Assembly: GCF_000021865.1 (NCBI RefSeq) | Contig: NC_014034.1 | Location: forward strand, 2,880,001-2,912,000 | Origin: Rhodobacter capsulatus SB 1003 | GTDB lineage: Bacteria > Pseudomonadota > Alphaproteobacteria > Rhodobacterales > Rhodobacteraceae | Length of the DNA: 32,000 nt | Reading direction: 5' to 3' | Shown: positions 20,830 through 32,000 of the stretch, one piece after another | How positions within the stretch are numbered: position 1 is the first letter of the stretch | How the letters are laid out: each line of letters opens with the position of its first letter | Made by a program: the position numbers and the translations under genes | The notes under the pieces: generated by a model | What the model was told of the DNA's origin: nothing | What the model saw: the letters and a program-made list of their open reading frames with translations, nothing else | Databases searched by the model: none

Positions 20830-21852
20830 TCAGCCTTTTTTCAGGCAGCGTTGGCCCAGCACTTCGGCGATCTGCACCGCATTCAGCGCCGCGCCCTTGC
20901 GCAGGTTGTCCGAGACGCACCACAGGTTCAGCCCGTTCTCGATCGTGCTGTCCTGCCGGATGCGCGAGATGTAGGTGGCATATTCGCCGACGCATTCGAC
21001 CGGCGTGATGTAGCCACCGGCTTCACGCTTGTCGACGACGAGCACGCCCGGGGCTTCGCGCAGGATCTCGGTCGCTTCTTCCCAGTCGAGGAATTCCTCG
21101 AACTCGATGTTCACCGCTTCCGAATGGCCGACGAAGACCGGCACGCGCACGCAGGTCGCGGTGACTTTGATCGACGGATCAAGGATCTTCTTCGTCTCGG
21201 CCACCATCTTCCATTCTTCCTTGGTCTCGCCGGAATCAAGGAAGACGTCGATATGCGGGATCACGTTGAAGGCGATCTGCTTGGGGTAAACCTTGGGCGC
21301 GACTTCCTGACCGGGGACATACATGCCCTTGGTCTGGTTCCAAAGCTCGTCCATCGCTTCCTTGCCGGTGCCCGAGACCGATTGATAGGTCGAGACCACG
21401 ACGCGCTTGATTTTCGCGCGGTCATGCAGCGGTTTCAGCGCCACCACCATCTGCGCGGTCGAGCAGTTCGGGTTCGCGATGATCATCTTGTTGGTGTAGC
21501 GCACGACGTCATCAGCGTTCACCTCGGGCACGATCAGCGGGATTTCCGGGTCGTAACGGTACAGCGAGGAGTTGTCGATCACCACGCAGCCCTGCGACGC
21601 GGCTTTCGGCGCGTAGACTTTCGTCGCGTCCGAGCCGATCGCGAAGAGCGCGATGTCCCAGCCGGTGAAATCGAACGTGTCGAGGTCCTGGGTCTTCAAA
21701 GTTCGGTCGCCAAAGCTGACTTCGGTGCCAAGCGACTTGCGCGACGCCAGCGCCGCGATTTCGTCCACCGGAAACTCGCGCTCGGCGAGAATGTTCAGCA
21801 TTTCCTTGCCAACGTTGCCCGTGGCACCGACGACGACGACCTTGTAGCCCAT
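20830..21852 (-). CDS. asd: Aspartate-semialdehyde dehydrogenase
   Basis: This is the C-terminal 340 aa of the 1248-aa track ORF. It begins MGYKVVVVGATGNVGKEMLNILAEREFP (Rossmann GxxGxxG) and contains IANPNCSTAQMVVALKPL with the active-site Cys. A strong SD (GAAGGAGG) lies 5 nt upstream of the ATG at 21852. Confidence 0.93.
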   Translation of the reverse strand: MGYKVVVVGATGNVGKEMLNILAEREFPVDEIAALASRKSLGTEVSFGDRTLKTQDLDTFDFTGWDIALFAIGSDATKVYAPKAASQGCVVIDNSSLYRYDPEIPLIVPEVNADDVVRYTNKMIIANPNCSTAQMVVALKPLHDRAKIKRVVVSTYQSVSGTGKEAMDELWNQTKGMYVPGQEVAPKVYPKQIAFNVIPHIDVFLDSGETKEEWKMVAETKKILDPSIKVTATCVRVPVFVGHSEAVNIEFEEFLDWEEATEILREAPGVLVVDKREAGGYITPVECVGEYATYISRIRQDSTIENGLNLWCVSDNLRKGAALNAVQIAEVLGQRCLKKG

Positions 21853-22149
21853 CCGGACCTCCTTCTCGAAAGAACGACCCCCGCTAGCGGAAACGGGGGG
21901 GTTTGGAAAGGGTTCGGGAAGTTTTCGGGAAAGTGGTGCGCAAAGGTCCCGGATCGGATCGGGCGGATCAGGAAACGCGACCCGCGTTTCCCCGCCCGTC
22001 GGTGCAGCGTCTGCCCCGGGGCCGATCTGCGCCAGGCGCGACAGAGGCCAGCGCCAGCCCCGGGCGGCGCGAAAGCGCCCGCCATGGGGCGGGGCGGGCG
22101 CTGGCCGGGGGCCTTTGGGCCCCCGTCTGACAAGGGGAACCGTCTCGCA

Positions 22150-22173
22150 GGGCGAAGGCGATGGCCTTCGCCC
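22150..22173 (-). terminator. Stem-loop immediately after the MFS transporter stop (possible terminator)
   Basis: A 10-bp perfect stem, GGGCGAAGGC with GCCTTCGCCC, starts 2 nt past the stop codon. There is no clear U-tract. Confidence 0.35.
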
Positions 22174-22175
22174 CC

Positions 22176-23354
22176 TCAATGGGGCCGCGCGCGCGAGAAC
22201 AGATAGACCGCCAGACCGGCCACGACCGGGATCAGGAAGAACAGGAAAAGCGCCCGATAGGCCGCCACCGGATCGCCCGCGCTTGAGGCCGCGGCAAAGA
22301 CCGGACGCGACAGGAAGAGCCCGATCCCCGCCCCGGCGATCGAGAACAGGTTCAAAAGCGTCACCCCCCGGCCCACCAGATGCGGCGGCAGGAAGGTCCG
22401 CCCATGCGCCATCAGAACCGGGAAGGAGGCGCCAAAGAACCCCACCGCGGCCAGAAGCGCCGTCGCCTGCCACAGCCCCGCATCGGGCGCGAAGGCAAGC
22501 GCCGCAAGCGCCAGACAGAGCACCAGATTGCCCGCAATCGCCACCCGCTTGTGGCTGCCAAGGATGCGGTCGGCCGGGCCATAGGCGAAATTGCCCAGCA
22601 CCATCGCCACCCCCATCGCCAGCGTGACCTTGCCGATCAGGCCCGCATCGGCGTCCTGCAGCGCGCTCAGCCAAGGTCCCGCCCAAAGCCCCCGGATCGC
22701 CGCGGCGGCAGTGTAATTGGCAAAGATCAAGGGCAGGATCAGCCAGAAGCCGGGCAGCCGCAGGATGTCGAAAACATTGCCCTTTTGGCCCTTGTGCGCG
22801 ATGCGTTCCGGGTCGCGGGTAAAGATCAGGATCGCCAGCGCCACGACTAGCGTCACCCCGGTCAGCCCCCAAAGCGTGGCCCTCCAGCCGAACGCGTCGA
22901 TCGCCGCGGCAAGCGGCGCGGCGCCTGCCAGATTGCCCAGACTGCCGACCCCGATAACCGCCGCGGCCAAAGTGCCGAAGATCGCGGGGGAAAAACTGCG
23001 CGCAAAGATGTAGTAAGATCCCATCAGAACGGGCGAGCAGCCGATGCCGATCAGCACCATCGCCAGATGGATGCCCCAGGGTCCGGTGGCCAGCGCGAAG
23101 GTCGCCGCGCCCCCGCCCCCGCCCAAGGCCAGCAGCCAGCCCACGGTCCGGCGCGGCCCGATCCGGTCGAGCGCCTCGCCCACCGGGATCTGCATCAGCG
23201 CGAAGGCCAGATACCAAAGGCCAAGCGAGACGGCCAGATCCTCGGCCGAGGCCCCCAGTTCCGTCTTCAGAACCGGCGTCAGCACCGCAAGGCAGGCACG
23301 ATAGAACTGGCTGAGCACATAGCCCGCCACAAGAAACGCAATCGACAGTCGCAT
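22176..23354 (-). CDS. MFS transporter
   Basis: ORF trimmed to the ATG at 23354, preceded by GGGGAGGG (MRLSIAFLVAGYVLSQFYRACLAVL...). About 392 aa with roughly 12 hydrophobic segments. The substrate is unknown. Confidence 0.8.
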   Translation of the reverse strand: MRLSIAFLVAGYVLSQFYRACLAVLTPVLKTELGASAEDLAVSLGLWYLAFALMQIPVGEALDRIGPRRTVGWLLALGGGGGAATFALATGPWGIHLAMVLIGIGCSPVLMGSYYIFARSFSPAIFGTLAAAVIGVGSLGNLAGAAPLAAAIDAFGWRATLWGLTGVTLVVALAILIFTRDPERIAHKGQKGNVFDILRLPGFWLILPLIFANYTAAAAIRGLWAGPWLSALQDADAGLIGKVTLAMGVAMVLGNFAYGPADRILGSHKRVAIAGNLVLCLALAALAFAPDAGLWQATALLAAVGFFGASFPVLMAHGRTFLPPHLVGRGVTLLNLFSIAGAGIGLFLSRPVFAAASSAGDPVAAYRALFLFFLIPVVAGLAVYLFSRARPH

Positions 23355-23517
23355 GATCCCTCCCCGGAGCCGGGCCAAGCTGCCTTGGGACGTGCGCAAA
23401 CACAAGGGTCTGCGACAAACCGGGGGTCTGCGGCGCGTCAAGATCGCGCCTGCTTGCTTGCGGGCGTCCTGCGGCTGCCCTAACCTCGCCTCCGTTTTCC
23501 GCACGAAGGGCCGCTCC

Positions 23518-24153
23518 ATGTTCGACTACACCGCGCTGCACTGGTCGGGCTTTCTGACCGCCGCCGTGCTTTTGAACCTGTCCCCCGGCCCGGACATGGC
23601 CTTCATCCTCGGGCAAACCCTGCGCGGCGGTCGCAAGGCGGGGTTCGCGGCGATGACGGGGGTCTGGACGGGCGCCCTCGGCCATGCGCTTTTTGCCGCC
23701 GCCGGGCTGTCGGCGCTGCTCGCCTCCTCGGCGCTGGCCTTCGCGCTGGTGAAGGCGATCGGGGCGGCCTATCTGATCTTTCTCGGCCTCAAGGCCCTGC
23801 GCGCGCCCGGGGGCAGCTTCGTCTCCGAGGCGCCCGAAGGCCTCTGCCCGGGCTGGCAGGTCTGGCGTCAGGGCGTGTTCGTGTCGCTGCTGAACCCCAA
23901 GGTCGCGATCTTTTTCCTGGCCTTCCTGCCGCAATTTGTCGTGGCCGGTGCGGGGCCGGTGTGGGCACAGCTGTTCCTGCACGGGTTTCTGGTGATCGCG
24001 GTCGCGGCGCTGATCGAGCCGCCCCTGGTCCTGATCGGCGCGACCGTGACGCGCGGATTGCGCGATCGCCCCGGGGTCGGACGCTGGCTGGACCGGGCCC
24101 TTGGCACGCTGCTGGTTGGTCTTGGGGTCAGATTGGCGCTGCAGCAGCGGTGA
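23518..24153 (+). CDS. LysE/RhtB family amino-acid exporter
   Basis: ORF trimmed to the ATG at 23518 (MFDYTALHWSGFLTAAVLLNLSPGPDMAFILGQTLRGGRKAG...). This is a typical LysE-family N-terminus, with about 211 aa and 5-6 TM segments. Confidence 0.82.
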   Translation: MFDYTALHWSGFLTAAVLLNLSPGPDMAFILGQTLRGGRKAGFAAMTGVWTGALGHALFAAAGLSALLASSALAFALVKAIGAAYLIFLGLKALRAPGGSFVSEAPEGLCPGWQVWRQGVFVSLLNPKVAIFFLAFLPQFVVAGAGPVWAQLFLHGFLVIAVAALIEPPLVLIGATVTRGLRDRPGVGRWLDRALGTLLVGLGVRLALQQR

Positions 24154-24312
24154 TCCGGCGCGGCGCGGATCCCGGGGGAACGGCGGATGCCGCCGGACCG
24201 GGCCTGCGCCGCCGCAGCGCCCCGGGCGGCAGAGCCCCTCATCTGCCTGTGGCCACCTGCCGCACAGAATTAGCTCTTGTTCTGCCCTGCCGTGCCGCAT
24301 ATACGAGCAGAC

Positions 24313-24402
24313 GGAGCGGTGGCCGAGTGGTCGAAGGCACACCCCTGCTAAGGGTGCAGGCGGGAAACCGTCTCGAGGGTTCGAATCCCTTCCGCTCCGC
24401 CA
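24313..24402 (+). tRNA. tRNA-Ser (anticodon GCU)
   Basis: GGAGCGGTGGCCGAGTGGTCGAAGGCACACCCCTGCTAAGGGTGCAGGCGGGAAACCGTCTCGAGGGTTCGAATCCCTTCCGCTCCGCCA. The acceptor stem is GGAGCGG/CCGCTCC and the anticodon loop is CUGCUAA. It has a long variable arm, the T-loop GGTTCGAATCC and an encoded CCA. Confidence 0.93.
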
Positions 24403-24428
24403 CTTGCCCCCGCGAAAGCGTTCTCCCG

Positions 24429-24452
24429 ATCCGGCTGCGGCCGGATTTTTTC
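24429..24452 (+). terminator. Intrinsic terminator of tRNA-Ser
   Basis: ATCCGGC, loop TGCG, then GCCGGAT, followed by TTTTTT. Confidence 0.75.
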
Positions 24453-24763
24453 GTTGTTTTCGAGGGTTATGCGGGAGGGGCTGAGCACCGGCGTCAGCAC
24501 CTGGAGGCCCGGAAGCGGTCTCTGAGGACTGATATTCTCCGGACCTCATGACTGCCAAGTTCCAGTACTGAGCCATTATCTAATTGATTTTATTTGAGAT
24601 TTCTGGGATCACCCTGAGCACTTCGCTTTCTGTGCCATTCGCGAGTTGGAACAGAAATCAAACATATCCGGCGCGCTCCTATGCGTTGATGCCTCGGAAT
24701 TGTGACGCCGTCAGCCGTCGGCCTTCGACGGGTTGCGCCTCAGCTCGGTCGCCAGTTAGGGTC

Positions 24764-25783
24764 CTATGGCGGCAACAGCGCCCGTTCTACTGGTGCGAGG
24801 GCATCGATCCGCGCCTTGCCGAGTTGTCGACAACCGGCAAGTTCAGTCAGAAATCGCACCCCTGCCACGCCTGCGGGGAGTGGTGGCCTGATGGCTGGGA
24901 TCACGCTCATATCGTACATCCGCAGGGAAGAGGTCGCACGGGCTAGGTCGAACGACCAGCCCAGCGCCGACTGCATATCTCGCCCGAGTGTGTCGGCCAC
25001 CACGGTGCGAAGCTTCAGTATGAGGTCGTGAAGCTCGATCCGCGCCTCGATATCGGAAACAAGCTCTGCGAGTGAGAAACCGCCTGCGGCCGGCTGAACG
25101 ACCAAAGAGGATAGAATCCCTGTAGTACCTGGTGGTGGATTTGCCTGTTCGAAAGAGACCTCATGTGCCCGGCGGTCCGTGGTGGTAGCCTTCGCGTCCA
25201 AGCGAAGGGAGCCCACGGCGAAGTCATAGCGCTCGTCTTGGTCTACGCGCCAGGCGCGGACAGCTGATGCGGGGTCAGTTGCGGCCCGGATGACGAGCAA
25301 CTCGCCAGCCAATCCGACCATGTTCTTCCTTGGCGTTTTGGCGAGCCGCTGAAAAAGGTCCACCAAGCGGTCCACAACCTCGGCAACTGCGGCCACCGTT
25401 GGATTGGGGCCGAGTGTCGCAGCGAGGAACTCCATCGTGGTGAGAAAGTATCGCTCGGCCGCACGTTCCTGAGACCTGCAAGAGACGACCGTCAGATTCT
25501 CGGTCCGGACTTCGCCGTCGCGCTCTTCAATGCGACAGGCGACGCTGAAGCGCGCCTCGATACCCGCAAGGACCAACGGCACCCGGTTTGTGGCCCCTGA
25601 GGTCCGGATCAGCAGTGCTGCGTAACCGGAGTTGTCCCGCCCCACGTAGTAGGCAGCTTCTGTTGGCGCCGCGGCGACGCTGAACGTGCCAGCCTGATCT
25701 GGCCTAGGCAGCCGTTCAAGCAGAGCGGGCAGTTGGCTGATCAATCTTGCACTTCCTGACCAGCTTGCAGTTGCACCAGCCAT
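24764..25783 (-). CDS. PD-(D/E)XK-motif protein (candidate nuclease effector)
   Basis: Last gene of the operon. It contains GLAGELLVI ... ERYDFAVGSLRLDAKAT, which fits E...D-x(10)-DxK of the restriction-endonuclease fold. The ATG at 25783 gives a 43-nt overlap with the upstream gene. An alternative TTG at 25744 has AGGAAG 7 nt upstream and overlaps the upstream stop (TTGA). Confidence 0.6.
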   Translation of the reverse strand: MAGATASWSGSARLISQLPALLERLPRPDQAGTFSVAAAPTEAAYYVGRDNSGYAALLIRTSGATNRVPLVLAGIEARFSVACRIEERDGEVRTENLTVVSCRSQERAAERYFLTTMEFLAATLGPNPTVAAVAEVVDRLVDLFQRLAKTPRKNMVGLAGELLVIRAATDPASAVRAWRVDQDERYDFAVGSLRLDAKATTTDRRAHEVSFEQANPPPGTTGILSSLVVQPAAGGFSLAELVSDIEARIELHDLILKLRTVVADTLGRDMQSALGWSFDLARATSSLRMYDMSVIPAIRPPLPAGVAGVRFLTELAGCRQLGKARIDALAPVERALLPP

Positions 25784-27987
25784 TCCTTCGCGAGATGTGG
25801 GGGAATGTGGATCGCCAGAAGCGGAACTGCGGCAGCCTCAATCGGCCCTCGATCTGTGTAAGACAGGTCGAAGCGATGGAGCTGAATGGTCGGCCGGTCA
25901 TCCATGGCAAACGCCGAGTCGCCCGGATAGTTTCGGCCTCCACCTGCTAAACGTGTCGGACCCTGCTGGAACCCCTTCTCGAGATTTCCAAACTCGGAGA
26001 CAGTACGACGAGAACCACTTGCGTTAGGTCGCATTCGATAGACAGCCACCGCAGTGTCAGCATTACGGCGGAGCGCTTCGCCAAGCGTCACAAGCATGCC
26101 AGTAAAGTGTGCAGTGTCGCGTGGATCCTCGAGTCTGTACTCTGAAAGCATGTCAATGACCGCTGTAATCGGTACTTCCCGCGCGACGAAGTGCCTTTGG
26201 CTGTCCTCGGTCGACAGATAAGTCTGAGTGTCCTCGGAAAAGCTGAACGCCTGAGCAAAGGCTTCCAGCAGATCGGCGTTCTTAGCACGAAGCTCCTCGG
26301 AGATGAGCGCACCTTTTTGCTGGGTCCACCCACCCGCACGTGTCCCTCTAAAAAAACTGTCCGACACTACGCTTCGCCGACAGGGCTGTAGGGAACTGTC
26401 GAGGACAAAACGGCGCCGCCACTTGTTTAGGCCGCCGGGCGTGGTCTCCATCAGCTTCAACTCACGCCGCATAAGGTTCTCGTGCTCCACGTACCCCTCG
26501 AAGGCCGAACGAGTGTCAGCTTCGAGCCAGATGCGACAGATCCCTAAGTACTTGCGTTTGTATCCAAAAAAGCGCGCCCTCTGTTGAACGGTGTCGGCGT
26601 TCCCTACCCCAACGCTGCGGGGCATATATGTGACTGTCAGACGGTCCACCGTAAAGCCTCGATCGACGGCTTGCCCGCCGACCAAGATCCAGCCCTCGGA
26701 GTTGCGCCAAGTGATTTCTGGCGTTCGCGGACGGCCATTTGTGTTGAATTCGATGATGGTGGTCTGCCGGAGTGCCCTAGGCATCTTGCCGAGGACATCC
26801 TCGAACGACGGGAGATGCGCGTCTGTAGTCGCTAAATGGTCGTATGAGGCGCGGAAATCCGCGACAAGTTCAATCCTGTCAGGGTCCGCTTCCTTCAAAT
26901 TAAGCACAGTTAGCCAAGCCGACTTGGCCTCGGTTACCCACTGCACGAACTGCCTGTGGTCCGCGCGCAACCGAGACGGATGGATCAGCATAGACCGACG
27001 TAGCCCGTCGCGGATCAAGCTGCCAGCGAGGCCAACAAAGAAGACCCTCAATGCCTCCAGCATGCTCTCAGGAGGATCATTGCCTTGCGCAAACTCCTGC
27101 GGGGGGATGTTCCTGATATAAGGAGAGCCGGGAGCGAAGAACTCTTGGCCCCCAACGTAGTCCGCACCAGGCTCAAGTACCTTGGGGAAATCAGGGGATA
27201 GGACGTCGGCGATGTTGATTAGAAGAGGTGCCTGCGGTGTGGCGGTGTATTGCAGGTAGGTGTGGCAGGGTAGTGCGTCCCGGAGTTCACGCAGCTTGGT
27301 GTAGGTGGGGCTCTCGCCGCCCTGCTGGGCACGCGTGTTGAGGCTGGCCTGATCGGCCTCGTCGTCAACGACAAGAACTGGTACGCGCTTGAGGTCCAGC
27401 TTACGGAGTAGCATTGTCAGGCTTTCAAGTCGCTGCCGCTGCTTCAGCACGGTCACAATGAGCGTTGGACGTTCATCATCCTCGAGTTCATCGTTCTGCC
27501 ATGCTTCGATGGCCTGCCGGATGGATTGCTCGTCGTGAGCGTCGTTGGCCTGGACGTTCTTCTGTATCTTCCACGAAGGAAGCCCTTCACCAGCGTTGAC
27601 GTTCAGATCCTTCTCGAGCCGCTCGTGCGACTGGTTGAGGAGATTTACTTTCGTCCCAGCGATAACAATGACCAACGGGAACCCGTTGTCCCGCGCAAGC
27701 CCGATGACAGTAGTGAACGACATGGTCTTGCCGCTCTGTACATTTCCAACCACCAACCCGGTTGCTGAACCATTCGGGTTACAAGGATCAACACCACGGC
27801 CAAGAATTTCGGCTGCATCCGCAATGAGCCTTGCCTGTGATGCCGCGTCGACTCCGCTTCGCCGGACTACACCGGTCGCCTCCTCTCCCTGGACGGGCAC
27901 CCACTTCATCTGTGGATTTGGCAGGGATGCAGAAAGCGGGATTGCTTGTCCCGGGTGTGCAGCTGCGGCGTCACTGTCTTGGGTCAT
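25741..27987 (-). CDS. SF2-like P-loop NTPase with Z1-type architecture
   Basis: 748 aa. Walker A is GNVQSGKT (27724-27747) and the DEAD-like Walker B is VLVVDDEADQAS (DDEAD at 27352-27366). A large C-terminal region follows. The VQSGKT...IVIAG...N-terminal pattern and the gene neighbourhood match my recollection of Z1 domain (PF10593) proteins. The ATG overlaps the upstream stop (ATGA). Confidence 0.7.
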   Translation of the reverse strand: MTQDSDAAAAHPGQAIPLSASLPNPQMKWVPVQGEEATGVVRRSGVDAASQARLIADAAEILGRGVDPCNPNGSATGLVVGNVQSGKTMSFTTVIGLARDNGFPLVIVIAGTKVNLLNQSHERLEKDLNVNAGEGLPSWKIQKNVQANDAHDEQSIRQAIEAWQNDELEDDERPTLIVTVLKQRQRLESLTMLLRKLDLKRVPVLVVDDEADQASLNTRAQQGGESPTYTKLRELRDALPCHTYLQYTATPQAPLLINIADVLSPDFPKVLEPGADYVGGQEFFAPGSPYIRNIPPQEFAQGNDPPESMLEALRVFFVGLAGSLIRDGLRRSMLIHPSRLRADHRQFVQWVTEAKSAWLTVLNLKEADPDRIELVADFRASYDHLATTDAHLPSFEDVLGKMPRALRQTTIIEFNTNGRPRTPEITWRNSEGWILVGGQAVDRGFTVDRLTVTYMPRSVGVGNADTVQQRARFFGYKRKYLGICRIWLEADTRSAFEGYVEHENLMRRELKLMETTPGGLNKWRRRFVLDSSLQPCRRSVVSDSFFRGTRAGGWTQQKGALISEELRAKNADLLEAFAQAFSFSEDTQTYLSTEDSQRHFVAREVPITAVIDMLSEYRLEDPRDTAHFTGMLVTLGEALRRNADTAVAVYRMRPNASGSRRTVSEFGNLEKGFQQGPTRLAGGGRNYPGDSAFAMDDRPTIQLHRFDLSYTDRGPIEAAAVPLLAIHIPPHLAKEWLVQLQAGQEVQD

Positions 27988-29516
27988 GCGCGTGACAAAG
28001 CCTCTCGCAGGATTTCGTTTACGTTACGCCGGATGGTGCCAGCCAATTTCACGCCAGCTCGCCGGGCCAGTTTTTCCGAAACGGCGATCGCAGAGCCGAC
28101 TCGGATCAGAGCCTCGATGTTACTGGGGTCCGTTTGTGCAAATAGAACCATGAATGGGTGAGCCATCGCGAGACGGATCTCAAGCTTCTCCGCACCACCT
28201 TCAGAGGACTGCTGATCACTCACGGTAAGCCAATCACCTTCGGCTGGGTCATCGGAAAGTTCGATGTGAATGACCCAGACTTGCCCTCGGAATTTCACTG
28301 TTAACTCGCGCGTAGCGAGCGTCGGCTGCGGCGCCAAAGGCTCCTTTTGGGTTTCGACCGGTATGGCATCAGCGACACGTTGGAGCACATCCGGAATGGA
28401 CTCTTCGATAACCTTTGTGGTCCGATCCAGCGCCTTGCTAGCGGCGGCTGCGCGGTCAGCTTTTGCCGCCCGTGCTTGGTAATTGTCGGCCTGCTTAAGA
28501 AGGGGCAGATCAGCACTGTCTAGGTGCTCTCGGAGCAGATCGAGAAAAGGCTGCTCATCATCGTCATTCCAACGAAACCCGTCCTTTGTATGGCTCACCT
28601 CGAACCCATCGAGTTCCAATTCCCCGAAGAGGCGCAGATGGCGGAAGCTTCCTGGGAGCTGAAAGATGTGGTGGGGGCGGTAACCATCCTCACCACTTCC
28701 TTGGATTAGCCTACCACGACGGAAAAGTGCAAAACCTGAACGAGCGTGACTTCCGGGGTCGCGAAGGGCCGCAAAACCCTTCACTTTCTGACCCTGTCCG
28801 AGGTCGAACGCAATTTCCTTTCTCCAGGTTCTAGGCTTACCGCCATCTTCCCGAGCATAGGGAGTAACAAGGATGTTTGGCGGTTCGTAGACGCAGGCCT
28901 CGCCGTTGAAGCGCAGTTCGAGTGTACCATTTCTAACAAAAACGCGGTATATGTCCGTCAGGTGTTCCCGGATCTTTCCGATGGTCCTTTTCACTGGAAT
29001 GTGGTGAAGGCCCTCCAGCACGATCTCTGTGTAGTGTGCGTTCGGCGCAGCAGGTTCTTCGTGGATGTCGAGTTCCTCGATTTCGTCGTTGACGATCCGT
29101 GAAATGTCGAACTTGACGGTGCGCTCGACGGGTTCACCGACGGCCTTCGTCCGAACGCGCCAATGGCTTGAGAACCAGCATGCCGCGCTTTTCATACCCA
29201 TGCCGAATTCGCTGAGGCCCGACGCATCCAACGGGACGACTGCGGGACGGAATGCTCGCGGAAACTCTGATCCAGCGATGCCTGCTGCGTTGTCCCGGAT
29301 AGTGATCCGGCCGGGCGGCGCGGAATCGATCTCGATGGAAACCCTCAATCGTTGGGAGCCGCCGTCAGCCAAGTCCAGTCGATCACGACTAGAGAGGTGG
29401 CTTTGAATGGCATTGTCAACGAACTCGGCTAGCGCGAACCATGGCTTGTAGTTCAGGTAACGCAGAACCGCTAGAACACTCACACCAGGCCGAATATCGA
29501 CTGTATTCACCGACAA
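27984..29516 (-). CDS. GHKL-superfamily (MORC/MutL-like, HATPase_c_3-type) ATPase
   Basis: 510 aa. Bergerat-fold motifs are present: N-box EFVDNA (29409-29426), G1 IRDNAAGI (DNAAG at 29280-29294) and G2 SEFGMGMKSA. The TTG start at 29516 has AAGGGGAGG 7 nt upstream. The C-terminal roughly 300 aa carry no motif I recognise. Confidence 0.75.
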   Translation of the reverse strand: MSVNTVDIRPGVSVLAVLRYLNYKPWFALAEFVDNAIQSHLSSRDRLDLADGGSQRLRVSIEIDSAPPGRITIRDNAAGIAGSEFPRAFRPAVVPLDASGLSEFGMGMKSAACWFSSHWRVRTKAVGEPVERTVKFDISRIVNDEIEELDIHEEPAAPNAHYTEIVLEGLHHIPVKRTIGKIREHLTDIYRVFVRNGTLELRFNGEACVYEPPNILVTPYAREDGGKPRTWRKEIAFDLGQGQKVKGFAALRDPGSHARSGFALFRRGRLIQGSGEDGYRPHHIFQLPGSFRHLRLFGELELDGFEVSHTKDGFRWNDDDEQPFLDLLREHLDSADLPLLKQADNYQARAAKADRAAAASKALDRTTKVIEESIPDVLQRVADAIPVETQKEPLAPQPTLATRELTVKFRGQVWVIHIELSDDPAEGDWLTVSDQQSSEGGAEKLEIRLAMAHPFMVLFAQTDPSNIEALIRVGSAIAVSEKLARRAGVKLAGTIRRNVNEILREALSRA

Positions 29517-29548
29517 ATGGCGGCCTCCCCTTAAACGAACGCAGGCGC

Positions 29549-30904
29549 TTAGGCCGCCGATACAAGTTCCCGAGTAATTTTCTCGTCCCGGACATCACTG
29601 CCATTTGGCGGCACTTGTGAACTTTGAAGGCTTTGCCCAGGAAGTAAGGCCTCTGCAACCGCAGCGATGACATCGACATTCACAGCGTTGCCAAGTGCCT
29701 TGTGCGCGGCTGCCTGGTTTTCGGGAAGATGCTTCAACTGCCCCATGCTCTGAAGCCGAGCGCATTCGCGCATAGTCATGTATCGGCGCTCCCAAGGAAT
29801 CACGGGCACCTGACTTGTTGTTAGGGCAACAAGTGATGGTGCAGCTGTCGGTCGCTTGGCTCGAATACCTGATGCCCGAAACTGGATGACTGACTGCCAA
29901 AGGTCGCGCGGTCCACCTTTCCAGTTCCACTCGAGCTTTTGAAAGCTAGGTGCGAAGTCCATGATCCTTGGAATCCAAGGATCAATTATGGCTTTGTGCC
30001 GGAGGTAGAAATCCCTGTTCTGCCGGATGAAGTTCTTCTTCCAGTCCGGAAAATGGGAAACCTGATCTCGCGCATACGAGGGAAGTGCAGCCTTCACCGC
30101 CTCGTGCTTCAAGCCCTCAAGCGAGCGCCCCAGCGCCCCCGTAAATGCGCCCATTCGATTGAGCCCGATGGCATGGGGCGTACTATCAAGGTAAGGGTAT
30201 GTTGCGCCGAACTCCATTGCCCATATTGGGAATGATGGCAGTTGCTCGTCTTTCGGCAGAGCGTCGATGAGCGATTGCCACGTTTCAAGATATTGAATGA
30301 AGCGAGGACCGAGCGGTCGAGCCTCTTTTGGTTTCTCGTCCAGGACGCTCTTGATCGTGACTTGGTCAAGTTGGTGGGTCGGCTCAGGCCATGAAAAATG
30401 CCTTAGACCTGTCCTTGATCCAACGATAATTGCGCGCTCTCGTACTTGAGGCACACCAAACATGAATGGCGAGAGCTTTTTCTTGTCGACTTCATATCCT
30501 AGCTCTTCGAGTCGCACCTTGATTTTACCCCATGTCCTCCCGCCGTCGTGCCGCAGAAGATTAGGCACGTTCTCGATCAGCAGATAGGAAGGCTTGTGCT
30601 TGTCGAGAATTTCAAGAACGTAATTGAACAAATCACCCCACTGTGGGCAGTCAAAACCAAGTTGCTCACCTGCTTTAGAAAATGGCTGACAAGGGAAGCC
30701 AGCACATAGGATGTCGTGAGGCGGCACATCATCAATCGCTTCACGGATATCTCCGTGCGGACGAATGCCAAAGTTCTTTTCGTAGAGGTCGGCAAGCCCG
30801 CTATTGAGTTCTGAAGCGAATACACAAGTGTGTCCAAGACCCTCAAGCGCCTGATGAAAACCACCCAGGCCCGCGAAGAGATCGGCGAATTTCAAGTTTC
30901 CCAT
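29549..30904 (-). CDS. DNA (cytosine-5)-methyltransferase
   Basis: All hallmark m5C motifs are present: I DLFAGLGGF, IV GFPCQPFS (catalytic Cys72, codon at 30689-30691), VI LIENVPNL, VIII QVRERAIIVG, IX RYMTMRECARLQSM and X ALGNAVNV. About 200 aa lie between motifs VIII and IX. Confidence 0.93.
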   Translation of the reverse strand: MGNLKFADLFAGLGGFHQALEGLGHTCVFASELNSGLADLYEKNFGIRPHGDIREAIDDVPPHDILCAGFPCQPFSKAGEQLGFDCPQWGDLFNYVLEILDKHKPSYLLIENVPNLLRHDGGRTWGKIKVRLEELGYEVDKKKLSPFMFGVPQVRERAIIVGSRTGLRHFSWPEPTHQLDQVTIKSVLDEKPKEARPLGPRFIQYLETWQSLIDALPKDEQLPSFPIWAMEFGATYPYLDSTPHAIGLNRMGAFTGALGRSLEGLKHEAVKAALPSYARDQVSHFPDWKKNFIRQNRDFYLRHKAIIDPWIPRIMDFAPSFQKLEWNWKGGPRDLWQSVIQFRASGIRAKRPTAAPSLVALTTSQVPVIPWERRYMTMRECARLQSMGQLKHLPENQAAAHKALGNAVNVDVIAAVAEALLPGQSLQSSQVPPNGSDVRDEKITRELVSAA

Positions 30905-30907
30905 AGC

Positions 30908-31087
30908 TTAATTGTCCAAGGGAAGAGCGAGTTGGCGCGTGGCGTGCTTTTCCAGCAAGTCTTTAACCGCGACATTCAATATGTACTGCAAGGAGAGAGG
31001 CGGGCGGTGGCCCTCAGCCATGGCGCGCAAGGCGTCGTAGTCTTCCACCTCGAGCGAGATGGACAAACGCTTCTTTGAACTAGACAT
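30908..31087 (-). CDS. Ribbon-helix-helix (CopG-like) protein, candidate controller of the operon
   Basis: 59 aa: MSSSKKRLSISLEVEDYDALRAMAEGHRPPLSLQYILNVAVKDLLEKH... It shows a strand-helix-helix pattern. Its stop lies 3 nt before the methyltransferase ATG. The rest of track ORF 30908..31684 is Arg/Gly-rich and was rejected. Confidence 0.65.
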   Translation of the reverse strand: MSSSKKRLSISLEVEDYDALRAMAEGHRPPLSLQYILNVAVKDLLEKHATRQLALPLDN

Positions 31088-31097
31088 GCCCACACCG

Positions 31098-31121
31098 CAC
31101 CTGTTTGCACCAGAGTGCACC
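31098..31121 (-). promoter_or_regulatory. Three phased direct repeats (candidate RHH operator)
   Basis: The minus strand reads GGTGCA-ctct-GGTGCA-aaca-GGTGCG with 10-bp periodicity. The repeats end 10 nt upstream of the RHH ATG. A TCGACA hexamer (31140-31135) lies 13 nt upstream of the first repeat. Confidence 0.4.
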
Positions 31122-31227
31122 AAAATGGCCGTCTTGTCGATCCTTGATTGCCCTCCCATGACCAAACCCCGAGAGCAACATCCCTTCCAACGAGGGCATC
31201 GTTCATCAGCCATACGGAGCCAGTTCC

Positions 31228-31611
31228 TCATCCAAGTTGCTCCTGCTGTTCGAGCCATTCCATGGGGAACGGCTTCAGCGCCCGTTCCAGCGACACATCC
31301 CGCCCCTGCGTCCCGCAAACTATCGCTTCCACGATGTCGGGCGAGAGCAGTGTCAGGCGCAGGATGCGGGTCATGTAGGACTGTGCGATGCCCTCGCGCT
31401 TGGCCAGTTCGGCGATGGTGGCGTACTCGCCCGACTCCAGCAGGCGCTTCCAGCGGAACGCCCGCGCCAGCGCCTTGACCAGTGTATTGTCCGTCCGGCG
31501 TGGCGGCGATGCACCGTTCGGCAGTTGCATTTCTTTCCGCCCGCCGCGCTTCACGACGCGGAACGGTACGTGGAGCGTCACCGTCTCGGGGATCGGAGCC
31601 GCGCGGGTCAT
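31228..31611 (-). CDS. Small HTH-containing protein translationally coupled to the serine recombinase
   Basis: ORF trimmed to the ATG at 31611, which overlaps the recombinase stop (ATGA). It is 127 aa with an HTH-like segment, ATIAELAKREGIAQSYMTRILRLTLLSPDIVEAIV. The function is unknown. Confidence 0.55.
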   Translation of the reverse strand: MTRAAPIPETVTLHVPFRVVKRGGRKEMQLPNGASPPRRTDNTLVKALARAFRWKRLLESGEYATIAELAKREGIAQSYMTRILRLTLLSPDIVEAIVCGTQGRDVSLERALKPFPMEWLEQQEQLG

Positions 31612-32000
31612 GCGGCTTCCCCAATGCCCCCGGCCAGCATCTCGCGAGCCAGACCTCCGAGCCCATCGACGCGCAGTCGGACATTCAGACCATCTATGCC
31701 GATTTCGACGCGCTCGACCAGCAGCGCTACGATGCGAGCCTGTTCGGCGGGGAAGAGTTCGTCCCACAGCGGGTCGAACTTTTGCAGGGCCTCGCGGGCG
31801 TCGGTCTCTGTGATATCGGCAGCCTGCGTTCGCGCGGCTTTCCAGGTGCCCGCGACGATCTCGGGTTGGTGGAACGCGGCGCGGAGCCGGTTGATCACGG
31901 CCGCTTCGACCTCGCCTGCGGGCACGCGGCCGACCGGGCAGGATCCTGCGCCATGCTTCAGCACCGTCTGGCTGACATAGTAGCGATAGAGTCGCCCACC
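31608..32000 (-). CDS. Large serine recombinase, C-terminal part (N-terminus outside window)
   Basis: The frame is open to the window edge. It reads GGRLYRYYVSQTVLKHGAGSCPVGRVPAGEVEAAVI (recombinase zinc-ribbon pattern), then the coiled-coil tail ...FDPLWDELFPAEQARIVALLVERVEIGIDGLNVRLRVDGL. This is typical of alphaproteobacterial large serine recombinases. Confidence 0.75.
   Translation of the reverse strand, partial: GGRLYRYYVSQTVLKHGAGSCPVGRVPAGEVEAAVINRLRAAFHQPEIVAGTWKAARTQAADITETDAREALQKFDPLWDELFPAEQARIVALLVERVEIGIDGLNVRLRVDGLGGLAREMLAGGIGEAA

Follow-up and report, generated by a model that had tools for sequence, protein, structure and literature searches.

A helicase-like protein of Rhodobacter capsulatus SB 1003 as the probable translocase subunit of a four-gene, GHKL-containing restriction cassette

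We analyzed a 32,000-nucleotide stretch of Rhodobacter capsulatus SB 1003 (contig NC_014034.1, positions 2,880,001 to 2,912,000; hereafter the window), in which a gene at 25741..27987 on the minus strand encodes a helicase-like protein of 748 amino acids (aa). By analogy with characterized restriction enzymes, this protein is probably the subunit that drives translocation in an ATP-dependent restriction complex, with a GHKL ATPase, a DUF4420 nuclease and a protective Dcm-type methyltransferase as its partners. The four genes form a cassette of the 'third type' of MORC/paraMORC operon, which Iyer, Abhiman and Aravind reported in 2008 and predicted to be a restriction-modification (RM) system (PMC2292703). 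According to these authors, such an operon consists of a GHKL ATPase, a superfamily II (SF2) helicase, a novel restriction endonuclease (RE)-fold nuclease with an E-D-ExK motif and usually a cytosine methylase, and the helicase's C-terminal domain bears the motif DThhQXuRhFG. All four components are found in the cassette, its helicase contains a fitting DTVQQRARFFG (aa 465-475), its nuclease has E-D-(D/E)xK, and the locus shows mobility and a patchy distribution.

Motif conservation in the 748-aa protein was assessed in an alignment of 80 homologues with 54-89% identity. The RecA-like (DEAD) lobe of the N-terminal core, aa ~35-300 (27088..27885, on the minus strand like all features of the cassette), was delimited by AlphaFold2 (AF2) secondary structure and Foldseek matches to SF2 helicases, and holds motifs I, II and III. 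A sequence-only reading of the window had pointed to the Walker A sequence GNVQSGKT (27724..27747) and to a DDEAD Walker B box (27352-27366), and both were confirmed by the alignment (for Walker A see also PMC5861437), with invariant key residues in all homologues. Walker A residue Q84 is invariant also in CglI-type and presumed NgoAVII-type sequences. Motif II runs on into a conserved loop (DDEADQASLNTRA, 27328..27366), likewise seen after DDEAD in H.CglI, and within DDEADQASLNT the residues D208-D212, A214, L216 and N217 are invariant. Motif III is QYTATPQ (aa 246-252; 27232..27252).

The same reading had noticed no evident second RecA-lobe motif set and had left about 500 residues after the Walker B box unassigned. 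Such a set was found, and only the ~200 C-terminal residues (aa ~545-740) remain without assignment. The second-half segment, aa 308-515 (26443..27066), was identified by a profile match, the AF2 model and Foldseek (PMC5861437); the profile scored 119.6 bits (cutoff, 25 bits), with Walker A and B lying upstream of the matched region. This segment contains a motif V-like sequence, ILVGGQAVDRGFTV (aa 434-447; 26647..26688), and a motif VI-like sequence, NADTVQQRARFFGYKR (aa 463-478; 26554..26601), in which Q469 and R472 show the QxxR spacing and every residue of Q469-R470-A471-R472 is invariant. Upstream of these lies the H/H motif HPSRLRADH (aa 336-344, with H336 and H344; 26956..26982), which opens a helical insertion; in the model, helices 341-362, 369-386 and 395-407 come after it. 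The key residues of the H/H motif and of motifs V and VI are invariant or nearly so.

When the full-length AF2 model (mean predicted local distance difference test score, pLDDT, 81.9; predicted template modelling score, pTM, 0.68) was compared to the PDB with Foldseek, 259 matches were obtained at E<=1e-3. At the top were Mfd, eIF4A/eIF4AIII, RIG-I, RecQ, MrfA, UvrB, PriA and HsdR of EcoR124I, the last a Type I motor. Two-lobe SF2 helicases matched with E-values of 7e-9 and below over ~500 aligned columns, and normalisation to two-lobe DEAD-box proteins of ~380 aa gave a TM score of ~0.5. A two-lobe SF2 helicase-type fold is thus predicted from the model. HMMER searches of all PDB sequences returned only noise, both with the single protein and with the 80-sequence profile (BesB, E=0.015; alpha-glucosidase, E=1). 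Because these sequence-only searches gave no match, the motor core is without a close relative of solved structure. In PADLOC, the best model for the 748-aa protein was 'Type II helicase domain protein' (2.2e-55), which derives from REBASE.

The hallmarks of H.CglI are a Walker A motif with Gln for Gly (PMC5861437), DDEAD followed by a conserved loop, H282 and H290 at the start of a helical insertion, and a QxxR motif VI. At the corresponding places the 748-aa protein carries VQSGKT, DDEADQASLNT, H336/H344 with three model helices, and Q469-R-A-R472, and the eight-residue spacing of H336/H344 equals that of H282/H290. Another likeness to the CglI type is the adjacent C5 methyltransferase. Identity, however, is only 24-28%, and a three-gene system of the CglI/NgoAVII/BceSIV type is ruled out by the nuclease, the GHKL partner and the C-terminal domain (C-domain). 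The cassette nuclease is a DUF4420 PD-(D/E)XK enzyme, whereas theirs combines a phospholipase D-like (PLD) nuclease with a B3-like DNA-binding domain; a true CglI-type locus (L015) carries the PLD nuclease. Furthermore, these systems are without the GHKL ATPase, and the C-domain of the 748-aa protein is longer than that of the CglI type, with no detectable kinship to PDB 6f1s.

The H/N subunits of CglI and NgoAVII have DNA-dependent NTPase activity, and R.CglI assembles with H.CglI into an R2H2 complex. Cleavage requires ATP hydrolysis, which is extensive in CglI, and the CglI data have been interpreted as translocation on double-stranded DNA that lets complexes communicate along it. It is because of this biochemistry that the motor role is given to the 748-aa protein. 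In the mechanism that we propose, it would act as the ATP-driven motor and DUF4420 as the nuclease, the N-terminal ~130 residues of the latter being the candidate site reader, while Dcm would protect the host DNA. For the GHKL protein, the most plausible role would be the one argued for by Iyer et al., a dimeric clamp or matchmaker that is operated by ATP and resembles MutL. 

The earlier reading had left the choice between a translocase and a sensor subunit. The translocase is favored here, and the sensor persists as a rather unlikely rival, in which the same subunit of the same complex would be an ATP-triggered switch as in Type III Res instead of a stepping translocase. A few ATPs would then suffice to make the complex slide on or clamp the DNA, and looping would be the task of the GHKL ATPase. 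This second ATPase could indeed do mechanical work, DNA looping by GHKL having been proposed by Iyer et al., and coupling may differ since the C-domain is unrelated to that of CglI. On the other hand, the motor motifs are all invariant, including III, V, VI and the H/H motif tied to coupling in CglI, which itself hydrolyses ATP extensively and behaves consistently with translocation.

The C-domain, aa ~545-740 (25768..26355), was delimited by the AF2 model, the alignment and Foldseek, and is in the model a separate, conserved and confidently folded domain. Between aa ~551 and 730 of the full-length model, most 10-residue pLDDT means lie at 81-96, and when modelled alone it folds independently (pLDDT 76.6). 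Its invariant motifs are QxH (597-599), YxMRP (650-654; here YRMRP), QGxT (here FQQGxT) and YPGD (687-690), while QLH (702-704) is largely conserved. No Pfam match was found in it. Foldseek with the isolated domain gave nothing significant, either against the PDB (best E=0.13, probability 0.08) or against the predicted viral structures of BFVD (best E=0.2), and weak matches to 2-oxoglutarate (2OG)-oxygenases and E2-acyltransferases were rejected as chance. As for the H.CglI C-domain, neither phmmer nor hmmsearch found a match to 6f1s, a structure which was also absent from the 50 best matches listed by Foldseek; the H protein of a Pediococcus CglI-type system readily matches it, at 9.5e-12. 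An hhalign comparison of the C-domain profile to CglI-type C-domains reached a probability of 11%. MAFFT did pair PCRRSV with NPTRxNV and WLVQLQ with WxPNIKLP, but this was not counted as homology. The domain is kept in a Rathayibacter homologue (38% identity) with the same partner genes, and a CglI-type domain stands in its place in PLD-nuclease systems, so that it co-varies with the partner set. This co-variation is the sole hint of what the domain does; it may serve to dock the protein to the partners or to DNA.

Judged by their conserved residues, the three partners look competent. The GHKL ATPase (27984..29516; HATPase_c_3, 2e-14) starts with TTG, preceded by the Shine-Dalgarno sequence AAGGGGAGG, and the Bergerat-fold residues E31, N35, D75, G79 and G105-K109 are invariant at five loci. 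Past aa 151 it has no Pfam match even at E<=10. The sequence SHTKDGF (aa 308-314), far downstream of the Bergerat fold, is also invariant. A lysine of the transducer (S5-domain) touches ATP in GHKL ATPases of the MutL/GyrB type, and SHTKDGF might hold that lysine. The DUF4420 PD-(D/E)XK nuclease (24764..25744; DUF4420, 2.7e-22) has conserved E148, D174 and (D/E)183-x-K185, and its N-terminal ~130 residues are less conserved. Neither of these two matched any PDB sequence in HMMER searches. The Dcm-type C5 cytosine DNA methyltransferase (29549..30904) has intact FxGxGG, PCQ, ENV, QxRxR and GNAV motifs.

The same four genes were found elsewhere; their order is usually kept, and 4-nt overlaps between them are frequent. 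Querying genome contigs with the single protein yielded only five close relatives, and more distant contexts were obtained by looking up the encoding contigs and from a plasmid collection. The cassette occurs e.g. in Methylobacterium and in Devosia, the latter locus having an integrase, IS66 and a relaxase in its vicinity, and in one further genome it adjoins a RecD2-like helicase. Every context examined had a linked Dcm gene, which was usually part of the same operon. At one locus (L010) it had been exchanged for an unrelated one, the other three genes showing no unusual divergence.

Mza is known from later literature as a five-gene defence system. An AIPR protein belongs to the Mza set. A Mza-like system that acts independently of methylation would account for weak matches of the cassette to MzaC (PADLOC, 4.8e-19; NCBIfam, 84.8 bits) as well as to MzaB (17.7 bits), but we regard it as very improbable. 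These scores fall far under the NCBIfam equivalog cutoffs of 1500 and 850 bits, respectively, no AIPR or other Mza component was found in the neighboring open reading frames (ORFs) scanned, and the cassette has Dcm and the DUF4420 nuclease as integral parts. Identity with MzaABCDE itself is ruled out on these grounds. MANTIS (Gao_RL) was also dismissed, as it is a different, BREX-related system with an adenine methyltransferase, an AAA+ ATPase and a helicase-nuclease.

The MutL-MutH-UvrD system carries out methyl-directed nicking and unwinding. Iyer et al. compared the third-type operon to it, since in both a GHKL ATPase couples a methylation-reading RE-fold nuclease to a helicase-type motor. 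The resemblance of GHKL to MutL, of the nuclease to MutH or Vsr, and of the helicase to UvrD recalls methyl-directed and very-short-patch repair, and would also suit a repair module that accompanies Dcm and, instead of serving defence, fixes T:G mismatches arising from deamination of 5-methylcytosine (5mC); occasional recruitment to repair is mentioned by Iyer et al., and we find such a role here highly unlikely. A Type IV-like, 5mC-dependent nuclease, with which the exchanged Dcm at L010 would agree, is equally unlikely, as a Dcm gene is found at each locus and such a nuclease beside it would be self-toxic unless the specificities were disjoint. What adds to the interest of the probable translocase is its orphan C-domain, its host, and that the literature searched contained no experimental study of the four-gene, GHKL-containing variant. 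R. capsulatus SB 1003 is a genetically tractable model organism. Nothing relevant on the locus was found in the R. capsulatus restriction or prophage literature.

The cassette lies in a low-GC island (24403-31000). Its four genes have a GC content of 0.53-0.62 (0.571 overall; lowest in dcm, 0.529), while the host DNA to the left (window 1-24300) has 0.688. At the edge of the island, ~360 bp away from the cassette's end, is a tRNA-Ser(GCT) gene (24313..24402, plus strand), which is likely a landmark of the insertion site of a mobile element. On the other side, a large serine recombinase gene reaches into the window with its 3' end (31608..32000, minus strand), the remainder of the element lying past the window border; there, the complete genome has DUF2924, the missing part of the recombinase and phage-like genes. 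The low GC content, the proximity of the tRNA and the recombinase and phage-like genes therefore identify the cassette as cargo that sits at one edge of a mobile element, probably a prophage, integrated in the genome.

Directly upstream of dcm is a 107-aa ORF (30908..31231, minus strand) resembling Arc/ribbon-helix-helix (RHH) repressors. This ORF may encode a controller (C-protein) for the RM-type cassette, or else belong to the integration module. Farther upstream is a 127-aa recombinase-associated ORF, phrog_14161 (31228..31611, minus strand). Both accompany the cassette in its closest relatives (L004 and L005), with 72-88% identity. A promoter scan returned no promoters, and terminators were at shuffle level, the one plausible case being that after the tRNA, a stem-loop with a T-run at 24428-24457. 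Lastly, a 1248-aa ORF (20830-24576, minus strand) was considered as a fifth component, such as AIPR, and rejected as a high-GC artefact over host genes. Only its last ~340 codons are those of aspartate-semialdehyde dehydrogenase (asd, about 20830-21851). In the gene calls of the identical genome, the remaining span is taken up by the tRNA-Ser, by a LysE-family gene on the plus strand (23518-24153) and by a major facilitator superfamily (MFS) transporter on the minus strand (22176-23354).
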